In this document: positions 3 to 64,000 of the stretch, piece by piece
Layout: each line of letters begins with the position of its first letter
How positions within the stretch are numbered: the first letter of the stretch is position 1
Origin: Candidatus Hydrogenedentota bacterium
GTDB taxonomy: Bacteria; Hydrogenedentota; Hydrogenedentia; Hydrogenedentales; SLHB01
Length of the DNA stretch: 64,000 bases
Assembly (NCBI GenBank): GCA_045863335.1
Contig: BTVY01000023.1
Location: 32,001-96,000 of the forward strand
Direction: 5' to 3'
Made by a program: the position numbers and the translations under genes
Notes under the pieces: model-generated
What the model was told of the DNA's origin: nothing
The model's input: only the letters and a program-made list of their open reading frames with translations
Databases searched by the model: none

Positions 3-680
3 CACAACGATGCCGCCTTCGACGACATGGTCCTGATAGGACATAGCATGGGCGGCCTGATCGCGAAAATGCTGGTCCAGGACAGCGGCGACGCGGTGTG
101 GGGCGCGATTGCCCGCAAACCCTTGGATGAACTGCATGCGTCGCCCGAGGTTCAAGCGGCCATTCGCGATGTCTTCTATTTCGAACCGCAACCCTTTGTG
201 AAGCGGGTGATCTTCATTTCCACGCCCCACCGAGGAAGCTCGCTGAGTAAGAGCATCCTGGGGACCGCAGTGTCACTTTTGATTGCAGTGCCGAAAACGT
301 TACTCGAAGAAGTGTGGTCTTTTATCGACACCAATCCCGGTGCATTGCGCGAGGACGTGAAAAAGCGGCGGCTGACGAGCATCGCCAACCTTTCCCCGGA
401 CAATCCGGTCATCGAGGTCCTGCAGGAGATCCCCATCGCGCCGGAAGTAACGTACCACACCATTGTCGGCAACGTGGCGGAGAAACCGGACGAGGAAATG
501 ACGGACGGCGTCGTTCCTTACACCAGTTCCCATCTCGAAGGCGCGGCTTCCGAGAAGATCGTGGAGGCGGGCCATTCCGCGCACTACCATCCGCTGGCGA
601 TTCTCGAGGTCCGGCGCATTTTGCAGGAACATCTTCAAACCCTTCCCGCGGCGGCCATGGCGGAAGTGCCGGGTCACTGA
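3..680 (+). CDS. Alpha/beta-hydrolase (lipase/esterase-like), 5'-truncated by window edge
   Basis: Nucleophile elbow GHSMGG, STPHRGS, DGVVPYTSS and a C-terminal His. Frame is open back to the window start. Confidence 0.85.
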   Translation, partial: HNDAAFDDMVLIGHSMGGLIAKMLVQDSGDAVWGAIARKPLDELHASPEVQAAIRDVFYFEPQPFVKRVIFISTPHRGSSLSKSILGTAVSLLIAVPKTLLEEVWSFIDTNPGALREDVKKRRLTSIANLSPDNPVIEVLQEIPIAPEVTYHTIVGNVAEKPDEEMTDGVVPYTSSHLEGAASEKIVEAGHSAHYHPLAILEVRRILQEHLQTLPAAAMAEVPGH

Positions 681-734
681 TTCGGGAGAGGCCGGCTGCA
701 ACGAAGCGGCTCCAAGAGACAGAGGAGACCGCTG

Positions 735-1256
735 ATGCCGTCCGCACCCCGTAGCCATCCCAACACTTTCCGAGCCTTGTCCTCGTACTGGGCCGATTCG
801 AATCGCATCGACGACCTTTTAACACGCGAAGAGCACGACTTTGTAGCCGTCGCGGTGCGGGAGTTCCGGCGCCGGTTCGGAGACGTAAAACCGACCGTGG
901 TGATGCGGATCGAGGGGGTGATCATGCTCTACGTGCTCGCGCGCCGGGCCGGACTTGCGGCACTTCGTGCGGGCCTCGCGCCAACGGATCTAAACCGGCC
1001 GCAGAAAGATGGTAAGACGCCCGCGGCTGATGATGTTTGCAGGGCGCACGATCATCTTCGCAAAGCGGTAAAGGACCTCGAGGACGCAACAGGAGACGGC
1101 GAGACGGCAGTGGCGCAAGGGGTCGCGGACCTTCTCCGGCCGCTGCTCAAGGATACGGAAGGGTTGGCGGAGTCCCTGGCGAATGAGGATCGCGAAGCGG
1201 GGTCGAATAACGGCCTGCCGTCCCGGCGTCGCGACTCCGTTGCGGCGGGGCCGTGA
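735..1256 (+). CDS. Hypothetical protein, putative terminase small subunit
   Basis: 173 aa, helical, GAGGAG RBS upstream. Overlaps the TerL start by 4 nt (GTGA). PAADDVCRAHDHLRKAVKDL loosely resembles the P27-type TerS helix. Assignment rests mainly on position. Confidence 0.5.
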   Translation: MPSAPRSHPNTFRALSSYWADSNRIDDLLTREEHDFVAVAVREFRRRFGDVKPTVVMRIEGVIMLYVLARRAGLAALRAGLAPTDLNRPQKDGKTPAADDVCRAHDHLRKAVKDLEDATGDGETAVAQGVADLLRPLLKDTEGLAESLANEDREAGSNNGLPSRRRDSVAAGP

Positions 1257-2731
1257 ACCGGATGCGATCGCCACACTACGAACGCGCCCGGCGAGAGTTG
1301 AAAACCCGCGGTTTCAGCGACGATGCGGTCCGACAGTGGTTGAATCTGCACGAGCGCGCGCGATTCGCCCATGCATACCTCCCCGGCGCGAAGGGCCGGC
1401 CCTGGATGGTGCGGGACTACCAGCGAAAATCCCTCGAATCCTTCGCGCTGCGCAAGGTGCATTGCGATGGTCGTGACGTGGGCAAGACGGCGGAGATCGA
1501 AATCATCGCGGCGTGGGCCATGGTCGCATGCCCCGACACGGAGATGCTCATCGCCACGCAGTGTGAGAATCATCTGTTCCCGTTGATGCACCGGCTCGTG
1601 CGCCGGTTCCAGACAACACCGGCTTTCGCGCCAAGCCTCGTTGAGTTGCGCCGGTCGCCGTCCTGGTTCCTTCGATTCTCTAACGGGTTCGTCCTTTGGG
1701 GGCGCATTGCGGGTCCGCGGGGAATGAATTTCCAAGGGCTTCACGTGGACTGGCAAATCGTGGACGAAGCCCAAGAGATGACCGAGAATTCCTGGGGAGA
1801 GTTGTATCAGGCGTTGAACGGGTGCGGCCGCCGCTGGGTGTATGGCGTGCCAAATGGCTTGCGCAATACCTTCTACCGCATGACGCGCATGCCGGACGCG
1901 GAACAGTACAACTGGCCGTCCACGCTGAACCCGGATTACACGGCCGAGAAAGACGCCGAGTTAACCCTGCTCTACGGCGGCAAGGATTCGCCCGGCTATC
2001 TTCATCGCGTACTCGGACTCCACGGATCACCGGCCCATGCCGTCTTTAATCTCGACCACTATCAGGAATGCGTAGACGACGGTATTGACTTCCTGGCGCT
2101 GACTGTGGACGAGCAAGACCCGCTTGATCTGCCGGGCGCCACCGAACCGGGGGAATACTACCTCGGCTGTGATCTGGGCTACGCGCGCGACCCGTCGGAA
2201 TTCGTCGTGTTCCGAGCCGAGCCGCCGCACTTGACCAACGTGATACGGGTGCATCTTCGGGGCGTAAACTATGCGCGGCAACAGGAGATCATTGTCGAAC
2301 TGGACGCGGCGTTTGACTTCCGCTCCATCGGGATTGACTGCGGAAACAATGGCCGTGCTGTCGCCCACAATCTCATGGCGCAGGGGCCGTTGTGGTGCGA
2401 GAAGGTTCGCGCCTTCGAGTTCGGTTCGGTTTTGGAACTGGAACCGTTGCCGGACGGCCGTCCCGACCGACGCCCCATGAAGACGTTCATGACCGAATTG
2501 CTCCAGCGACACTTGGCAGACCGGTCGGTCGTGTTTCCGCGCTTGCCGGACCGCGAAACGCAGTATGCCTCGCACACGTACTCAATCGGCATCAGCGGTC
2601 AAGTGCTGTTTGAGAAGGGCAACGATCACATCATCGACGCCGACCGATGCGCCGTGCTCGCCCATTATCTCGACACCCAGCGCGGGACCGCGGCGCCGTC
2701 AATTGGCCGTATGCGGCTGGAAGGATTCTGA
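1253..2731 (+). CDS. Phage terminase large subunit-like protein (ATPase + RNase H-like nuclease)
   Basis: Adenine-binding YQ (RDYQR), Walker A GRDVGKT, Walker B WQIVDEAQ, coupling-motif region GVPNG..N.FY, and nuclease acidic motifs LGCDLG...D, IDCGNNG, NDHIIDA. Confidence 0.88.
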   Translation: MNRMRSPHYERARRELKTRGFSDDAVRQWLNLHERARFAHAYLPGAKGRPWMVRDYQRKSLESFALRKVHCDGRDVGKTAEIEIIAAWAMVACPDTEMLIATQCENHLFPLMHRLVRRFQTTPAFAPSLVELRRSPSWFLRFSNGFVLWGRIAGPRGMNFQGLHVDWQIVDEAQEMTENSWGELYQALNGCGRRWVYGVPNGLRNTFYRMTRMPDAEQYNWPSTLNPDYTAEKDAELTLLYGGKDSPGYLHRVLGLHGSPAHAVFNLDHYQECVDDGIDFLALTVDEQDPLDLPGATEPGEYYLGCDLGYARDPSEFVVFRAEPPHLTNVIRVHLRGVNYARQQEIIVELDAAFDFRSIGIDCGNNGRAVAHNLMAQGPLWCEKVRAFEFGSVLELEPLPDGRPDRRPMKTFMTELLQRHLADRSVVFPRLPDRETQYASHTYSIGISGQVLFEKGNDHIIDADRCAVLAHYLDTQRGTAAPSIGRMRLEGF

Positions 2732-2743
2732 TCTTGCGGTCTC

Positions 2744-4822
2744 TCACAGACCGTTCAGCACGTTGCTTACCCGCTCGGTGAGCACGTCCGCCGTAAAGGG
2801 TTTCTGAATGAAGCGGTCTCCCAGTTGCTCCGCGATAAACCGGGAATCGCGGTTTTCGATATGGCCGGACATGAACAAAATCCGCATGTTCGGCCAAGTC
2901 TCAAGGATGCTCTCCGCCAGATCGCGGCCCGAAGGTCCAGGCATGACCATATCCGTCAACACCAGATCAATGGCCGTCCCCTGCCTCTGGAGAATTCGCA
3001 ACGCTTCACGAGCATTCGGGGCGGCGAGAACCGTGTACCCCTCCTTCTGAAGGATCCGTTCCACGACCTTACGGACCGACTCTTCATCCTCCACAACAAG
3101 AACCGTGCCTTCCGCATCGGTTCTCCGATCGCGCGGCGCTGGGGAATCAGCGTCTTCCTCGGTGTGCTCCGCCACCGGCATCGCGATCGTAAAGACCGAT
3201 CCCTGGCCGGGCGTACTCTCGGCCACGATCTTGCCGTCACAACTTCGGACAATGGCGTACACGGTGGAAAGCCCCAAACCGGTTCCTTGACCCTCCTCCT
3301 TTGTCGTAAAGAACGGTTCAAAGATACGGGCGAGGACTTCCGGATCCATTCCCATGCCCGTATCGGAAACGCTGAGGTGTACGAAACTGCCGTCCGGCGC
3401 TTCCTGAAGCGCTTTGCGCAACCTGGGCCGGTCCACACGGGTACGCACGGTGATCGCGCCGCCTCGCGGCATGGCGTCGCGCGCATTCACCACCAGATTC
3501 AGTAACACCTGTTCGATCTGACTGATGTCCGCATAGATGTCTGGCAACGACGAGGCCAACTGCACGTCGAGCCTGATGTTCTCGCCGATGAGACGGCGCA
3601 GCAATTCGTGCATATTCTTGATGATCTGATTGAGATTCACCACGCGACGGCTCGCGACCTGACGCCGGCTGAAGGTTAGTAGCTGCCGGGTCAGGGCAGC
3701 GCCGCGCTCGGCGATGCCAAGAATCTCCTCGGCTCCAGACTGCACGGCTTGTGTATCCCCGGGCTGGCCTGCCATCAAGTCGGCGGTGCCCATGATGGCA
3801 GTGAGCAGATTGTTGAAATCATGAGCGACGCCGCCGGCCAGCCGGCCAACCGCTTCCATCTTTTGGGCCTGCCGAAATTGATCTTCGAGCTTCCGAAGAT
3901 CAGTCACGTCGAGCCCGTAAATAAGCACATGCGTCACATTGCCGTTTTCGTCAAGAATGGGTTTGTGCGTGCGAATCCAGTGTTCGACGTCTCCCGATTC
4001 AAGCGGGAATCGTTCGTCGAACTGCATCACCTCCTTGCGCGCCACCACAAGATTGACCCACTCGGTGCGTTGTTTGCCGATCTCGGGATTGATCCCGCGG
4101 TATTCGCAGTACTCCTCCATCGTCTGCCCGATAATCCAGGATCGTGTTTCCGGGTCTGGAACCGCGCTGGGAGAAGCGTACTCGTACCGGCACGAACTGT
4201 CGACCATGGCAATGTGCGCGGGCAGCAAGGCCAGCAGCTCCTCATAGAATTCACGCAGTCGTATCGCTTCCAGTTCGGCCCGGCGCCGCTCCTCGATATT
4301 CTGCGTGATGGACAGGATGCAACGTTCGCCATTCAATGTAATGAGCCGCGCATAGAATAGACCGTGAATGACCTCGCCACCCTTCTTGCGGACGCGAATC
4401 TCCAACCCATTAATCTCGCCGTCTTGACGTAGCGCATCCACAATGCGCTGCCGGTTCTCGCCATCCGCCCAGAGGCCGATCTCGGCGGAAGTGTGTCCGA
4501 TGATCTCCTCCCGAGCGTAACCGGTCCGCATAATGAACGCTTCGTTTACATCGAAGAATCGTCCATCGGCGAGCGTAGCAATCGACATGGAGAAGGGGCT
4601 GTCTTCGTAGATAAACTGGCGGAAATCCTGCGCATGGGCGCGGCGGGCCATTTCCTCGTCGAGCGCCTTGTACAGCCGTTCATTCTCCGCGAGGAGACTC
4701 CCCAGCGATTCCTGAATGGCGTCACATGCCTCTGTGCCGCCGGGCAGATCCTTAACCAGTCTGCTCAGTCCGGACAATTCGGCTCGGACCTTCGCCTCTA
4801 TATTGTTCTTCTGATTTGTCAC
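2744..4822 (-). CDS. Hybrid sensor histidine kinase (PAS-PAS-HisKA-HATPase-REC)
   Basis: H-box AGGVAHDFNNLL, N-box NLVVNARDAM, G-boxes DTGMGM and GTGLGL, FEPFFTTK, receiver LVLTDMVMP. Confidence 0.95.
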   Translation of the reverse strand: MTNQKNNIEAKVRAELSGLSRLVKDLPGGTEACDAIQESLGSLLAENERLYKALDEEMARRAHAQDFRQFIYEDSPFSMSIATLADGRFFDVNEAFIMRTGYAREEIIGHTSAEIGLWADGENRQRIVDALRQDGEINGLEIRVRKKGGEVIHGLFYARLITLNGERCILSITQNIEERRRAELEAIRLREFYEELLALLPAHIAMVDSSCRYEYASPSAVPDPETRSWIIGQTMEEYCEYRGINPEIGKQRTEWVNLVVARKEVMQFDERFPLESGDVEHWIRTHKPILDENGNVTHVLIYGLDVTDLRKLEDQFRQAQKMEAVGRLAGGVAHDFNNLLTAIMGTADLMAGQPGDTQAVQSGAEEILGIAERGAALTRQLLTFSRRQVASRRVVNLNQIIKNMHELLRRLIGENIRLDVQLASSLPDIYADISQIEQVLLNLVVNARDAMPRGGAITVRTRVDRPRLRKALQEAPDGSFVHLSVSDTGMGMDPEVLARIFEPFFTTKEEGQGTGLGLSTVYAIVRSCDGKIVAESTPGQGSVFTIAMPVAEHTEEDADSPAPRDRRTDAEGTVLVVEDEESVRKVVERILQKEGYTVLAAPNAREALRILQRQGTAIDLVLTDMVMPGPSGRDLAESILETWPNMRILFMSGHIENRDSRFIAEQLGDRFIQKPFTADVLTERVSNVLNGL

Positions 4823-58198: not shown

Positions 58199-60526
58199 GT
58201 GCTATTTCGTAGGTCCTTGCTGTGCATCCTGCCGTTAATGCTTCCGCACTTCGTATCGGCACAGCCTTCATTGGATGAAACTCCTGCAGCGCCGGGTGAT
58301 TGGGGCTATCGTCCTGGGAACAGTGAGACCACCGCAGTAAACCCTCCCGCGTTTTCCTGGCGGCCGACGGACGGTATCGCCACGTATACGGTACAAATCG
58401 CGACGGACGAGGCCTTTGAAAACCCCTTGCGCGAGCAGAACGGGATCGTGTGGAACACGTGGTGTCCGGACGCGTCCTTCCCGGCGGGCTCGCACTATTG
58501 GCGGTACCGGGGCGTGACCGAGTCCGGTGAAGAAACGGCGTGGAGCGAAGTTCGTTCGTTTACCATTCCGGCGGACGCACCGGCTTTTCCGCAGCCGACC
58601 CTTTCGGAGTTGCGCCGCCGCATGCCGAAGGAACATCCGCGCCTCTTCTACCGGCCCGAGGATATCGGCCACCTGAAGGAACTCGCCGCGGGACCCCTGT
58701 CCGAGCGGTGGCAGGCCCTCGTGGAGCACGCGGACAAACTGTTGGAATCGCCGCCGGACACCACCGAACCGCCCAAGTACCCCGAGGGCACGGTGCGCCT
58801 GAGCGAAGAGTGGAAGGCCATCTGGTGGGGCAACCGGCGCCGCGCCATTGCCGTGGCCGACAGTGCGGCGACGCTCGGTTTCGTGTACCGGATCAGCGGC
58901 AACGAGAAGTACGCGAAGGCCGCCCGGGACCTGCTCGTCGCGTTGACCACGTGGGACCCGGAAGGCTCGACGCAGTACAAATACAACGACGAAGCGGCCA
59001 TGCCGCTCCTGTACATGACGTCCCGCGCGTACGACTGGGCGTACCCCGCGTTGAGCGAAGAGGACCGCAATGCCGTCATCGAAATGATGTGGATTCGTGG
59101 CGAGCAATGCTTCAATCATCTCGTCGGGCGGCAACACCTGTGGCACCCCTACGCGAGCCACAGCAATCGCGCCTGGCATTTCCTGGGTGAGTTGGCCATT
59201 GCCTTCCACGGCGACTTTCCCGACGCGGACCGCTGGCTCGACTTCGCCATGACGGTGTTTTACACGGCCTACCCGGTCTGGAGCGATTCGGACGGTGGCT
59301 GGCACGAAGGGATCGCCTACTGGTCGAGCTACATGAGCCGGTTCATGTACTGGGCGCACACGGTGCGCGCGGCCTTCGGCATCGACGTGTTTGAACGTCC
59401 CTTCTTCCAGCGCGTCGGCGATTACGGCATGTACCTGCTGCCGCCCGGCATGAAGACGGGTGGGTTCAGCGATCAATCCACGGGCGTCACGTCGAGCAGC
59501 ATCGGCCCGCTCATGGCGGTGTTCGCCGCAGGCGCGCGCAATCCGTACTGGAAGTGGTATGCGGACGAAGTGGACGCCGACATCGGCGGTGGGTACGTCG
59601 GATTCCTCGCTGCGGCCCACGCGCAGAACCTGGAAGCGAAAGCGCCCACGGACCGCCCGGAGTCGACTTGCTTCTACGGAACCGGGCTCGCCGCGCTGAA
59701 CTCGAACCTGCTGGACGGCACGGCGAACCACCAGATCCAGTTCAAGAGCAGTCCCATGGGCCGGCAGAGCCACGGGTACAACGCGAACAACGCGTTTCTC
59801 TTGAACCTCAACGGCGAGCGCGTCTTCCTGCGCACGGGCAAACGCGACGTGTACGGCAGCCCCCATCATAAGGACTGGATGTGGCACAGCCGCTCCGACA
59901 ACGCCATCCTCGTGAACGGCGCAGGGCAAGTGAAGCACAGCCCCAACGCGACTGGCCGCATCACTGCGTTCGCCACGTCGGACACGGTCGATGTGGTCGC
60001 CGGCGAAGCGGGCGCGTCATACGAGAACCTGGATCGCTGGTCGCGGCGTATTGTGTTCCTCAAACCAAATCTCATCGTAATCCACGATTGGCTCGAAGCG
60101 CCGGAGCCTTCCACCTTCCAATGGACCCTCCACGCGCCGGGTGCGTTCGAACTGGGCGAGAACACGGCCACGTGGTCCGGCGATCCCGGGCACGTGCGCG
60201 TGCGGTTCCTCGAACCGGCGGGATTGGCGCTCAGTCAGACCGATCAGTTCGATCCGCCGCCCGCGGAATGGGCGAACTTCAAACTGAACGAATGGCACCT
60301 CACCGCCGACTGCGCGGAGAAAGCAAAAACGCGCGAGTTCGTAACCGTCATCGAGATCCTGGACGCGCCCGAACAAGCGCCGACGGACGTGTCGCTGGAA
60401 CAAACTCCAGACGGAGCGCGGGTGGTGACCGTTACGACTGGCGCTTCGCCCACGCGCGTCCTGTTTGCTCGCGACGCCTTCGAAGTCGACGCGCCCGAGT
60501 TTGCTCACCACTTCGAGGACGAGTAG
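58199..60526 (+). CDS. Secreted DUF4962 / heparinase II/III-like polysaccharide lyase
   Basis: AAGGAGG RBS and GTG start. NPPAFSW, HPRLF, DGGWHEGIAYW, FKSSP.G..SH, NAILVNG.GQ. Confidence 0.82.
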   Translation: MLFRRSLLCILPLMLPHFVSAQPSLDETPAAPGDWGYRPGNSETTAVNPPAFSWRPTDGIATYTVQIATDEAFENPLREQNGIVWNTWCPDASFPAGSHYWRYRGVTESGEETAWSEVRSFTIPADAPAFPQPTLSELRRRMPKEHPRLFYRPEDIGHLKELAAGPLSERWQALVEHADKLLESPPDTTEPPKYPEGTVRLSEEWKAIWWGNRRRAIAVADSAATLGFVYRISGNEKYAKAARDLLVALTTWDPEGSTQYKYNDEAAMPLLYMTSRAYDWAYPALSEEDRNAVIEMMWIRGEQCFNHLVGRQHLWHPYASHSNRAWHFLGELAIAFHGDFPDADRWLDFAMTVFYTAYPVWSDSDGGWHEGIAYWSSYMSRFMYWAHTVRAAFGIDVFERPFFQRVGDYGMYLLPPGMKTGGFSDQSTGVTSSSIGPLMAVFAAGARNPYWKWYADEVDADIGGGYVGFLAAAHAQNLEAKAPTDRPESTCFYGTGLAALNSNLLDGTANHQIQFKSSPMGRQSHGYNANNAFLLNLNGERVFLRTGKRDVYGSPHHKDWMWHSRSDNAILVNGAGQVKHSPNATGRITAFATSDTVDVVAGEAGASYENLDRWSRRIVFLKPNLIVIHDWLEAPEPSTFQWTLHAPGAFELGENTATWSGDPGHVRVRFLEPAGLALSQTDQFDPPPAEWANFKLNEWHLTADCAEKAKTREFVTVIEILDAPEQAPTDVSLEQTPDGARVVTVTTGASPTRVLFARDAFEVDAPEFAHHFEDE

Positions 60527-60860
60527 AGGATGTAGGGACAACTGCCGTTTTCCTCCTGAATTTGGAGGTACCTCCGCAATGGCACGGAAATGGAACGCGG
60601 CAGTTCTCATTCAACCGGCCCCAGTCTTCTTCTGGGGCCGGTGGCGTCGCCACAACCCTGCGGGATAAGATGGGCGGGGGACGCCAATCCAGTACCGGAC
60701 CAGGGGGAACACGCCATGACCGCGGCATTTGGATCCCGAACTTTTTTCACGTAACGCTTCTGGTTCGGTCTTTCCCGCCCAACGAGGTAATCCGGACTTT
60801 AGTCTATTCACCCGGTGTTGATAGTCGCCTCTCAAATACAAATTGCAGCATAAATTTGGC

Positions 60861-60889
60861 TTGCTCACCACCATATATTGTGGTACATT
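60861..60889 (+). promoter_or_regulatory. Putative promoter with NrdR-box-like palindrome in its spacer
   Basis: TTGCTC-N17-TACATT with extended TG. The spacer contains ccaccatatattgtgg. Confidence 0.35.
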
Positions 60890-61163
60890 GGAACTTGAAC
60901 TTGACGAGCTTCACGGTAGGCACGCATTCTCAGTGTCGCAGACGGGACGGTCCGACCATGGGAGGCAAGGGGAATTTCCTTGACATTCTAGTCTTTCGGA
61001 AGATAGTATTTTAGGATCTACCGCGTGAGATCGCGTCCCACGATGCATGTATACAGCGTTCGGCATACCTACATTTACAAGAATGGAAATTCGTCGCAGG
61101 AAGAATAGCTCTTGAGCGGAGCAAACGAGAGTAGGGTGCAGAAAATCGAAAGGAGGGATACCT

Positions 61164-61403
61164 ATGTCGCCCAACACGGAGCGTAGTGTGTGTGGTGGCG
61201 AATCTAGGTCTAGTTCTGATTGGAAGGGTTTGATTGACGTTGATCTGCCCGAGATTGGCCCTGTTACGACTGATGTGGTCAAAAAAGCGCATGGACTTTC
61301 CGACCGGATCCGAGGTTCTGTGCGTCTCGCTCTAGGTTTAATCTGGACCGACAAGGATTACGAAGAGTATCGGAATAAGGTCTTAAAGCGGCCTTTACCT
61401 TAA
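61164..61403 (+). CDS. Small hypothetical protein (79 aa)
   Basis: Strong AAGGAGG RBS. Ends RGSVRLALGLIWTDKDYEEYRNKVLKRPLP. Confidence 0.65.
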   Translation: MSPNTERSVCGGESRSSSDWKGLIDVDLPEIGPVTTDVVKKAHGLSDRIRGSVRLALGLIWTDKDYEEYRNKVLKRPLP

Positions 61404-61467
61404 AGCGAGTTCGCGCTGCAATCTTTTCAGAGGGGGAGGTCACTGTCTTTATGGGAGCGAAAAGCGG

Positions 61468-62187
61468 TTGATGGGAGACACTGACGCCCACAAGAATACT
61501 GAAGCAGATGATTACTGGAAAGCGTTAGTGCAGGTCCACCAACACACGAAGGATTTATATCTCGTCGGGGAGGAAAGCAATCCAGAACTAAAGACGTGGC
61601 TTCAACCAATTCGAGAGCAACGCGATGCGCTCGAACACATTGTTAGGTCCCAAGCGCGGGCCTATGACATTAGGTCAAACGCGGATGGTCAGGATCCAGC
61701 TACTCCTAACGAAGATGACGCCACCGAAGACGCAGAATACATAAAGAGCAATCTGCGGCACGCACTGGGGCACGAAGTACGTGCCTTCTTCGACGTTGCG
61801 GACTATCTATGCATAGTAGCGCGCGACAATATTACGAAGTCAATGTCGGACTACGAGAACAAGGCAATTGCTGACGTGTTCCCAAGTTACTACACCGAAA
61901 TAAGGCCAGACCTTGAGTCGATTAGCAAGAATATAGCGAAGATTCGACAGAAGAAGGACATCGCAGAAATCGCCGAGTGCAACGAACTCGTCGTCAAATA
62001 TAAGGATGTTGTGCTCACGGTTTTAAGCAAGTCGGAATCAGTATCGACGCGCATACCGGCATTGGAGGAATACACCCGAAAGAACCGTGTGAAACAGATT
62101 AGGGATTACAGCGTTCAGTTCGTTATAGGATTCGTTCTTGTAATCTTCGCCGCGGTCTTGGGATATATCTTCGGGGCCAATAGCTGA
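61468..62187 (+). CDS. Helical hypothetical protein with C-terminal TM anchor
   Basis: 239 aa. Motifs QPIREQRDALEH and LGHEVRAFFD. Hydrophobic tail FVIGFVLVIFAAVLGYIFG. Confidence 0.75.
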   Translation: MMGDTDAHKNTEADDYWKALVQVHQHTKDLYLVGEESNPELKTWLQPIREQRDALEHIVRSQARAYDIRSNADGQDPATPNEDDATEDAEYIKSNLRHALGHEVRAFFDVADYLCIVARDNITKSMSDYENKAIADVFPSYYTEIRPDLESISKNIAKIRQKKDIAEIAECNELVVKYKDVVLTVLSKSESVSTRIPALEEYTRKNRVKQIRDYSVQFVIGFVLVIFAAVLGYIFGANS

Positions 62188-62302
62188 GATGGCTAACCCG
62201 TAGTCTTTGCCAATCTACCTACTTTCAGCGCCTGATACATTATGCACAAGCGAGTTCCACGGGCAAAACAGACCACCGTCTTGCGTTGGATGAAGCGGCA
62301 CC

Positions 62303-63532
62303 CTACTTCAAACTGCGCCAATTGCGCCGGAGTACCGGCCCACGTGCTTTGTTAATTATCGTGAGCGCGTCGCGATTAGCGTCAAGAGGGCTGTTGGCGG
62401 AAGGACTACTCCCAAGAAAATCGCGGTGACGTCCACGCACGCCGTCTTCGTGCAAGGATTCGAGTAAACTCTCGGAATTCTGAAGCAAGGCTAGTTGTGC
62501 CGCAACTGTTTCATCGAATGACTTTTTCACGCATGCGCGGCATTGCGAATGCAGACAATTCAGATAGTGGCGAAAAGCGTCTTGCTCCGATAGCCCCACC
62601 GTTGTTGGCCTGGGTCCGCTGAAAATCTCCGGAAGCCTGCCCCAAGCCGAATTCTCAGGATCTTGAAGTAGGTGTAACACGCCATTTCTATGCGCAACAT
62701 CCAGCGTCGCCGCGTTGAATTCTGACAAAGCCTGGGGGCAATAGTACCATACACCTCGTCTCTTCGTTTCATCCTCAAGTGCGTCCCGGAACTTTTCCGG
62801 AGGAAAGGCCCTCACATTCATCCACGTTCCTGAACAGATCGCATCCGCGCGCACGAGTCCAGCCAATAGCTGTTGGTGACTGCAGTAACCTATGATTGCC
62901 GTTCTTCCTCTGAGTTTTATCCCAGCGACCAGATCTAAGAGATTCGCCATCCATATCGGATCTGCAACCAAATAGCTCCCACGCGGATGCTCACACACGA
63001 TATAGTAACCGCCCACATCCCAATCAGAGATGGATTCCAGCAAGTTATCAATCTGATCTTGGTCAGCTAATGCCCCCTCCGACAGTGCGAGGGTCGGGAT
63101 GACTGGCATATCAAGATTGAGGGACAAAGCCGCGCTTAAGAAAGCCTCCTGCGTTGCCAACCAGTGTTCGTCAACAGAACTAGCAACTAAGCCCGGAAGA
63201 ATTAATGCGCTTGTCTCAATCTGCGCGTTTACTCGATGCAACTTTTTTACCAATGCGGATGCGCGATTACTTTGCCAGAATAAACCGGAGTCGTAGTCCT
63301 TCGGCCACCATGGATGCGAGCATAACCTACGATGGTCTCCGTGCGGAACATAGAACTGAGGATCGAGGTAGATCTGGACGTTCGCGAGTGCTGCCAGTTC
63401 TTTACCGAACGAAACCATTCGATCCGGCTCAATGTCGCGAGGGCTGAGGACGACAGCGCCTCCGTTCCAATGTTTGAGTAGACATCTGCAGTGTTCCATC
63501 ATTCCATTGCCAAATTGAAGAAATAGTTCCAC
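62303..63532 (-). CDS. Hypothetical protein (409 aa, possible alpha/beta barrel), coupled to kinase
   Basis: Long ORF with GGAGG RBS and GTG start, 18 nt downstream of the kinase stop. Motifs VVLSPRD, YLDPQFY.P, F.HYL. Confidence 0.75.
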   Translation of the reverse strand: MELFLQFGNGMMEHCRCLLKHWNGGAVVLSPRDIEPDRMVSFGKELAALANVQIYLDPQFYVPHGDHRRLCSHPWWPKDYDSGLFWQSNRASALVKKLHRVNAQIETSALILPGLVASSVDEHWLATQEAFLSAALSLNLDMPVIPTLALSEGALADQDQIDNLLESISDWDVGGYYIVCEHPRGSYLVADPIWMANLLDLVAGIKLRGRTAIIGYCSHQQLLAGLVRADAICSGTWMNVRAFPPEKFRDALEDETKRRGVWYYCPQALSEFNAATLDVAHRNGVLHLLQDPENSAWGRLPEIFSGPRPTTVGLSEQDAFRHYLNCLHSQCRACVKKSFDETVAAQLALLQNSESLLESLHEDGVRGRHRDFLGSSPSANSPLDANRDALTIINKARGPVLRRNWRSLK

Positions 63533-63550
63533 GATTTGCAGCCTCCCGTC

Positions 63551-64000
63551 TCATGTGGCTTTGACTCCTTCGTCGCCACAGATCTCTACGGCCCAGTCAT
63601 ATGCGTCTGCCACCGTTCGAGGGCGATGCTCCCTTCGTTTCTGTGTCATGGCGATGATTAAATCTCTTAAGCCGTTAGTAGACAATGAAGCAAGATCCAA
63701 AGGTGGTAATGCGATCCTCTCTGTTCGCCTCATGATCTCGAGTGGGTCGCGAGTTCCTCTCCTGAACGGATTGGTTCCAGTGGCGGCTTCGAAGGCGGTA
63801 ACCCCTAGCGCGAACAGATCGGCGCGTGAATCGATTTCTCGCTTTACGTTGTAGCACTGCTCCGGCGGTGCGTAACCAGGCGTAATTTTCCCGAATGGGT
63901 GATGAGTTGGAGTGAGCGACTCCATTGTTAAGTGGCGCGCAATTCCAAAGTCAATCAGCCAGTAAGACGAATCGTCGTAGTGCTGAATGATATTCTCCGG
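63551..64000 (-). CDS. Hanks-type Ser/Thr protein kinase, 5'-truncated by window edge
   Basis: Frame read from 64000: PENIIQHYDDSSYWLIDFGIARH...TPGYAPPEQ...RADLFALGV..FEAATG.NPF...RP. Confidence 0.92.
   Translation of the reverse strand, partial: PENIIQHYDDSSYWLIDFGIARHLTMESLTPTHHPFGKITPGYAPPEQCYNVKREIDSRADLFALGVTAFEAATGTNPFRRGTRDPLEIMRRTERIALPPLDLASLSTNGLRDLIIAMTQKRREHRPRTVADAYDWAVEICGDEGVKAT

Follow-up and report, generated by a model that had tools for sequence, protein, structure and literature searches.

We analysed a 64,000-nucleotide (nt) stretch of Candidatus Hydrogenedentota DNA, the window, in which two overlapping genes at positions 735 to 2731 encode a small helical protein, c1, and a large terminase, TerL. 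We consider it rather probable that c1 and TerL are the packaging genes, now detached, of a multi-locus element that resembles gene transfer agents (GTAs) and is inherited vertically across the phylum. What carries this reading is homology, fold, intact active sites, distribution across the phylum, a vertical pattern, purifying selection and, in some genomes, linkage of TerL to genes for a virus-like head. The original prediction, made from the window, had called the terminase pair an orphan, which is true of the window and false of the genome, where a head module lies on another contig, C14. Throughout, the genome under study is designated G000 and the window is G000:C23:32001-96000; the genome set comprised 135 genomes of the phylum (86 of high quality, 66 genera), with families labelled f1, f3, f7, f13, f14, f15 and so on. 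The two genes, with lengths in amino acids (aa), are:

735..1256, plus strand: c1, a 173-aa, all-helical open reading frame (ORF) with an ATG start; the partner upstream of TerL, small-terminase-like by position only
1253..2731, plus strand: TerL, a 492-aa large terminase with a GTG start, an N-terminal ATPase and a C-terminal RNase-H-like nuclease

TerL and its small partner

The ORF list and the sequence bore out the gene structure first described: the 492-aa translation contains the six TerL motifs YQ, GRDVGKT, IVDEAQ, GCDLG, IDCG and NDHIIDA, and its frame overlaps that of c1 by GTGA at positions 1253-1256. Because a public database copy of TerL (P0001) is 489 aa long, an in-frame ATG at 1262, 5 nt past the c1 stop codon, is counted as an alternative start, and the two ORFs are tightly coupled whichever start applies. 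A ribosome-binding site of the GGAG type stands 7-8 nt ahead of the c1 ATG.

TerL matched phrog_2 (terminase large subunit) with an E-value of 4.6e-17, and no Pfam or NCBIfam terminase model was reached at threshold. An AlphaFold model based on an 85-row alignment had a predicted local distance difference test score (pLDDT) of 94.4; when this model was compared with the PDB by Foldseek, the best matches were full-length TerLs, T4 gp17 (E 2.8e-18) followed by D6E, HK97 and Sf6, and the nuclease-domain structures of G20c, P74-26 and SPP1 were matched as well. Among the 85 family members, Q57, G77-K78, D171-E172, D307, D362 and D458-H459 were invariant or nearly so, and both active sites were kept in all 53 orthologs: K78 (Walker A) and D171/E172 (Walker B) of the ATPase, and D307, D362, D458 and D462 of the nuclease. 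Family match, modelled fold and residue checks all identify the 492-aa protein, in keeping with the intact TerL first proposed, as a true large terminase, complete in length and with intact catalytic residues.

TerL was found in 123 of the 135 genomes, 83 of the 86 high-quality genomes and 60 of the 66 genera, with no internal stop in any listed match. Public TerL proteins, from near-identical down to 67% identity, come from Candidatus Hydrogenedentes assemblies with contigs of up to 5.1 Mb and are named only 'hypothetical protein'. As a yardstick we used Asd, a housekeeping gene on the same contig that was found in 131 of 135 genomes. TerL identity to G000 was 78-97% within the genus, 65-75% within the family and mostly 58-72% in other families (52-54% in two f3 genomes, 59% in f15), and the values for Asd at the genus, family, other-family and f15 ranks were 87-99%, 75-83%, 71-80% and 68-69%. 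Over 99 genomes the mean identity to G000 was 68.5% for TerL vs. 77.5% for Asd, with a Spearman correlation of 0.48 to which related genomes do not contribute independently. In prevalence and sequence divergence TerL is close to Asd; judged by these comparisons, it counts among the core genes of the phylum and is no orphan remnant.

The vertical pattern was assessed by the family labels on the TerL tree and by identity vs. taxonomic distance. In a 65-row tree the orthologs formed a tight clade with a Shimodaira-Hasegawa-like approximate likelihood ratio test (SH-aLRT) value of 95, and the family labels required 13 changes, compared with a minimum of 11 and a shuffled mean of 30.3, none of 200 shuffles being as low. 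Families f7 and f15 nested within f1 at SH-aLRT values of 84-92, below the mark of 95 for a well-supported branch. The ratio of nonsynonymous to synonymous substitution rates (dN/dS) was 0.03-0.13 (Nei-Gojobori, pairs with dS below 1). Vertical congruence and purifying selection, which had been put forward as signs of domestication, are therefore both present: the tree follows the host families and dN/dS is low. The gene appears to be mostly vertically inherited and to co-diversify with its hosts, as the genomic definition of a GTA has it.

Using an iterative profile on six-frame ORFs, c1 was located 5' of TerL on the same strand at 46 of 53 ortholog loci, f15 included; a 47th profile match fell inside the TerL frame of L076, and the profile gave no match at six loci (L033, L051, L052, L054, L063 and L065). 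The gene matched none of the Pfam, NCBIfam, PHROG and PADLOC families and has no paralog in G000. Its sequence changes faster than that of TerL, with identities of 13 to 96% in its alignment, and is under purifying selection with a dN/dS of 0.12-0.40. Its AlphaFold model consists of helices only (pLDDT 75.9), and the best match labelled as a small terminase (TerS) in BFVD or the PDB was a viral model at E 0.22, with template modelling scores of 0.40/0.50 over 99 columns, which is not significant. A language model gave a weak lead to a Terminase_4 cluster (0.90, 161 shared features). Prediction of a c1-TerL complex likewise lent weak support, with a median of 0.59 vs. a best control of 0.00: 58 of 80 solved complexes reached this mark, as did 2 of 110 mismatched pairs, and scores of 0.60 or under came from just 7 of those 80 and from both mismatches. 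The complex runs agreed in at least 66% of contacts, with a partner pLDDT of at least 60. The leads to TerS are position, coupling and co-conservation, together with the weak leads above. We regard c1, on this sequence and model evidence, as a conserved partner of TerL whose position resembles that of a small terminase; its identity as TerS is not established, and with no family and no significant fold match the small-terminase label of the original prediction is unproven.

A third gene, c2, is a 143-193-aa ORF that separates c1 from TerL at 14 loci, which represent eight families; it carries an invariant lipobox and a Pfam 3D domain (PF06725, E 4.5e-18) and is highly conserved. In family f1 it has been relocated, and in G000 it is found at C56:36320-36799 (locus L081 8320-8787, minus strand) adjoining a glycosyltransferase, an ABC_tran_2 protein and an alginate-export porin. 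It is probably the ancestral middle gene of the c1-TerL operon, and it may belong to the same element, serving in lysis or envelope crossing, or be an old neighbour.

The head module and the surroundings of TerL

A search of G000 with PF06074 (Portal_Mu) gave a match at G000:C14:124883-125734 (38.7 bits), close to a gene already seen recurring near TerL in other genomes. The head module at this place comprises the following genes:

G000:C14:124625-133620 (locus L093 8625-17620), one strand: the whole module, about 10 kb, intact
Gene 1: portal, 419 aa, Mu-type (phrog_3753, E 2.6e-49)
Gene 2: 232-aa protein (phrog_16951, function unknown)
Genes 3-4: 74-aa and 232-aa proteins
Gene 5: 126-aa virion structural protein (phrog_4588)
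Gene 6: major head protein, 349 aa (phrog_3922, E 1.1e-52; Phage_capsid_4 by language-model atlas, score 1.00)
Gene 7: 115-aa protein
Gene 8: Dit-like protein, 228 aa (phrog_33, E 1.7e-13)
Gene 9: 584-aa protein with a staphylococcal-nuclease-like motif
Gene 10: 203-aa head/virion protein, the last before the contig end

The module is co-linear in five genomes of three families: the same 11-gene order, with a last gene of 133 aa, recurs in G106, G118 and G063 and partially in G034, with unrelated genes on both sides. The major head protein was found as a single, intact copy of 57-99% identity in 115 of the 135 genomes, in 78 of 86 high-quality genomes and in 58 of 66 genera; the portal was present in 58 of 61 sampled high-quality genomes and in all 40 of their genera. 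No terminase lies beside the C14 module. The minus-strand 1006-aa ORF 5' of its portal has no counterpart at the other four loci compared.

Head genes had at first seemed absent from G000, as judged with PF04860, PF05065, PF05133 and PF04233, and this absence was ruled out as a family mismatch; PF04860, PF05133 and PF04233 have no match in G000, tail families being outside this search. An interim reading of a stand-alone, capsid-independent domesticated TerL was dropped once the PF06074/phrog_3753 portal and the phrog_3922/Phage_capsid_4 capsid had been found. The gene c9/m8, which recurs near TerL or the head module, was set aside; it encodes a DUF1080-like glycosyl hydrolase, has many paralogs and probably belongs to the host without relation to the element.

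The distance between TerL and the portal was measured only where both share one contig. TerL lies within 0.8-9 kb of the portal in five genera of four families: 0.8 kb in G084, 1.4 kb in G118, 2 kb in G034, 8.4 kb in G097 and 9 kb in G063. Wider spacings were 23 kb (G053), 53 kb (G113), about 1 Mb (G092) and about 1.5 Mb (G069). In G034, c1 and c2 are separated from TerL by an inserted esterase, and three small ORFs stand between TerL and the portal, which precedes the major head protein. In G000, c1 and TerL are on C23, where there is no portal, the head module is on C14 and c2 is on C56. At the genomic level the proposal of a split GTA-like system is supported: a conserved portal/capsid module exists on another contig, matches TerL in its spread and conservation across the phylum, and is adjacent to TerL in some genera.

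Within the window, the two genes are set among host genes, as had been stated. The 5' neighbour of c1 is the lipase-like hydrolase of the original prediction, an alpha/beta-hydrolase-like ORF whose Abhydrolase_6 and PGAP1 matches are each under the Pfam cut-off, and the 3' neighbour of TerL is indeed a convergent histidine kinase, of the hybrid type (HATPase_c 2.5e-24, HisKA, PAS and Response_reg). The guanine-plus-cytosine (GC) content of the first 2 kb is host-like, at 0.616 vs. about 0.58-0.64 across most of the window. The claim that portal, capsid and integrase genes are missing from the window also held: matches to PF06074, PF05065 and PF00589 in G000 all fall outside it, on C14, C2, C4, C13, C15, C61 and C3, and the integrase profile (PF00589) found nothing anywhere on C23. 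Beyond the window, the 32 kb on its 5' side carry host-like genes (for ThiG, Asd, thioredoxin and aldo-keto reductase), and none of the ORFs tested in this part had a PHROG match. A promoter and terminator scan of positions 400-3000 returned nothing above chance. From a library labelled as RNA-seq, one 3,900-nt contig spans positions 1-2933 continuously, including the hydrolase end, c1 and TerL; it differs from the window at 27 letters and represents a close strain. This contig may be DNA carry-over. At the far end of the window (60001-64000), the GC content drops to 0.52-0.54 vs. about 0.60 elsewhere.

Competing explanations

G000 carries a second TerL at C42:13168-14778 (loci L002/L004), a 536-aa ORF that is 66% identical and keeps all catalytic residues. 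The recurrent neighbour of TerLs of this type is a Cys-rich, low-complexity protein of about 490 aa with no family match, of which G000 has four full-length copies (C42, C1, C51 and C37). Kinship was rejected both between the ORFs of about 490 aa upstream of the two G000 TerL copies and between the small ORF at C42 and c1. Three further TerL copies with 42-45% identity, long branches and host-like neighbours occur at L068 (G083:C22), L078 (G004:C187) and L079 (G078:C66), and a c1-like ORF (E 6.3e-13) lies upstream of the one at L068.

Prophages of the phylum encode TerLs of the same family (loci L069-L072 and L080), which are 33-37% identical and keep all catalytic residues. They differ from the core TerL in having a tyrosine integrase on their flank and portal and Mu-F genes after them, in their patchy distribution, in their separate tree branch (length 1.95) and in lacking a c1-like ORF. 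Such prophages, and the caudoviricete derivation of all components, are what would be expected if c1, TerL and the head genes belonged to a selfish element, such as a prophage in decay or still able to move, whose frequency in the phylum is accidental. This we regard as very improbable. About 90% of genomes, from nearly all families, carry single, intact copies of these genes, which are under strong purifying selection and follow the host families in their tree; the neighbouring host genes vary between genera, no integrase is nearby, and the parts are up to 1.5 Mb apart. Moreover, neither a single-protein scan of IMG/VR nor a later one with a 24-row alignment returned a core-clade TerL, the nearest viral TerL being 39% identical and the others 26-31%. 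A pattern scan of genome contigs gave 595 matches, none of them confirmed, and carries little weight because the phylum's own genomes were not returned. The signs of a prophage history that had been named beforehand, namely absence of the pair from relatives, clustering with prophages and prophage remains upstream, were each looked for and none was seen. Portal and Mu-F genes of the prophages, used as queries for head genes in G000, gave no matches; they belong to a different portal family and are no evidence of absence.

Several observations weigh against a dispersed GTA-like element. TerL and capsid were found together in 105 of the 135 genomes, TerL without capsid in 18, capsid without TerL in 10 and neither in 2. 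In three genomes with TerL, namely G072 (97% complete, 40 contigs), G065 and G041, the searches recovered neither portal nor capsid, and in two genomes with portal and capsid, G001 (f14) and G081 (f13), they recovered none of TerL, c1 and c2. The 11-gene module contains no tape-measure, tube or sheath-sized gene, tail families not having been searched genome-wide, and c1 has no small-terminase family and no fold match at E ≤ 0.001 in the PDB or BFVD. The C42-type TerL clade, which arose within f1, is without c1, and the prophage portals have no sequence-level homology to the C14 portal. The search for other TerLs in G000 was confined to phrog_2 and the profile of the present family, and scanning the genome with phrog_2 did not recover the C23 copy. 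Finally, the depth of the contig labelled as RNA-seq is flat (about 10) over all neighbouring genes, with RNA not separable from DNA carry-over, and because of this flatness transcription of c1 and TerL is not inferable. The presence mismatches in the five genomes named could be real losses, replacements or assembly gaps. In G059 and G043, c2 lies 650-780 bp from a contig end on the expected TerL side; in G132 and G024 the portal is present and the capsid was not found. Some TerL/capsid mismatches are assembly breaks, and most fall in fragmented assemblies.

These mismatches would also be understandable if TerL and c1 were a stand-alone domesticated ATPase-nuclease, active without a capsid in a role such as DNA processing, repair or anti-phage interference, and co-distributed with the head module by coincidence or for historical reasons. 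Such a role would fit the lack of linkage to head genes in most genomes, over distances of up to 1.5 Mb, and the C42-type clade, which dispenses with c1 while keeping every catalytic residue. We give it little credence nonetheless: in the five genera of four families described above the portal is close to TerL, the prevalence and conservation of TerL, portal and capsid agree, literature searches turned up no capsid-independent function of TerL, and the mismatches mostly concern fragmented assemblies, including two in which the adjoining gene abuts a contig end. No defence family in PADLOC-DB was matched by TerL, c1, the C42 copy, c5 or c2. This, and the conservation of both catalytic centres, makes the decoy or DNA-processing role suggested in the original prediction less likely; a dead decoy in particular is disfavoured because both centres are fully conserved.

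The simplest history for a dispersed GTA-like element is that a phage-like block, probably contiguous and ordered c1, c2, TerL, portal, major head protein, became endogenous ahead of the diversification of the phylum and was later pulled apart, its parts being kept intact while rearrangements shifted TerL to between 0.8 kb and 1.5 Mb away in different genera. The data suggest a very old domesticated virus-like particle system. By analogy with gene transfer agents, the C14 module, if expressed, would form procapsids; TerL and c1 would dock on the portal, the TerL ATPase would translocate DNA and its nuclease would cut it, and assembled particles with packaged DNA would be released and would deliver their content. 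Loci 1-1.5 Mb apart (G092 and G069) would not be containable in one headful of phage size, so the whole dispersed element presumably cannot be packaged.

Particles made by TerL, c1 and the head module could also serve an end other than gene transfer, such as DNA export or release of extracellular DNA by capsids with a short tail or none, killing or defence, or help to a satellite. Some features of the genes point in this direction: the absence of long-tail genes from the 11-gene module, the staphylococcal-nuclease-like motif of its 584-aa protein and the exported 3D-domain lipoprotein c2 as an ancestral neighbour. A candidate for a helped satellite exists in G000 at C2, about 75.8-84.7 kb (locus L040 5814-14642, minus strand), where a small integrative island encodes a tyrosine integrase, an AAA_25 primase/helicase, a Terminase_4 small terminase, an ERCC4-type nuclease and an HK97-type capsid (PF05065) with a 168-aa N-terminal extension, the only PF05065 capsid gene of the genome. 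With no TerL or portal of its own, this island looks, by its gene content, like a capsid-encoding phage satellite. However, PF05065 capsids occur in only 7 of 61 genomes, so that an island of this type is not conserved, which speaks against the helper role, and the Dit-like and several virion proteins of the head module suggest some tail structure. We consider a non-transfer particle unlikely, though the present data do not separate it from gene transfer.

A more far-reaching possibility, which we hold to be unlikely, is that a virus-derived head and packaging machine was domesticated before the phylum radiated and has been kept intact, its terminase acting in trans from a distant locus. The product may then be a new kind of DNA-packaging particle, tail-less or short-tailed, that fills a core role in the cell and differs from a classical GTA. 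The idea of such a particle arises because no long-tail genes were seen and because the c2 lipoprotein and the nuclease-motif protein travel along.

Gene transfer agents are known from few lineages. If functional, the GTA-like element proposed here would represent a further, independent domestication, in a candidate phylum that is uncultivated; its retention by about nine of ten genomes, in nearly all families, would imply great age and a real benefit to the host. For the study of horizontal gene flow in this phylum it yields a testable list of genes, comprising c1, TerL, the portal, the major head protein and some nine others. The case further illustrates the distance to which a terminase can move from its head genes and still be kept, and in such genomes these genes should not be counted as prophage by pipelines for virus prediction and annotation.

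Comparison with known systems

Our searches of full-text literature, supplements not covered, found no paper linking terminases, prophages or GTAs to this phylum, and nothing on orphan terminases or on a domesticated terminase under purifying selection. The one source mentioning both the phylum and GTAs assigns the GTAs to Alphaproteobacteria. According to a published definition, GTAs consist of caudoviricete-derived proteins, are fully endogenised, often at multiple loci, and are mostly vertically inherited; their own 'genome' is not fully packageable, and they package mostly random host DNA and deliver it to cells (PMC9662315). The genomic side of this definition is matched here by caudoviricete-derived proteins (TerL, portal, major head and virion proteins, with significant PHROG matches), endogenised multi-locus organisation and a vertical pattern.

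Like the RcGTA-type agents of Alphaproteobacteria (Rhodogtaviriformidae; PMC9662315), the element has a caudoviricete-derived TerL, portal and capsid, is endogenous and mostly vertical, occupies several loci under purifying selection and is without integrase or replication genes. RcGTA keeps TerS, TerL and portal in one cluster. The present element, of independent origin and characterised only through its genes, differs in having TerL apart from the head cluster, no recognisable long tail and a phylum-wide distribution, and also in its components: a phrog_2-like TerL without a Pfam terminase match, a Mu-type portal and a capsid of the Phage_capsid_4 type. The GTAs of Brachyspira (VSH-1/BhGTA) and Bartonella (BaGTA) are independent domestications whose 'genome' is likely dispersed and whose TerLs fall in host-specific, slow-evolving clades (PMC9662315). 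Dispersed loci and a host-specific, slow-evolving TerL clade are shared with the element described here; host phyla differ and the gene sets are unrelated. For BhGTA and BaGTA, particles and DNA packaging have been demonstrated, in contrast to the gene-level description of the present element. From the TerLs of the phages T4 (gp17, 3cpe), D6E (5oe8), HK97 (6z6d) and Sf6 (4iei), the protein in the window is set apart by an identity of 11-17% in structural alignments, by its location outside a phage genome and, in G000, by having no portal gene on its 3' side, and it shares with all of them the same two-domain fold and catalytic motifs.

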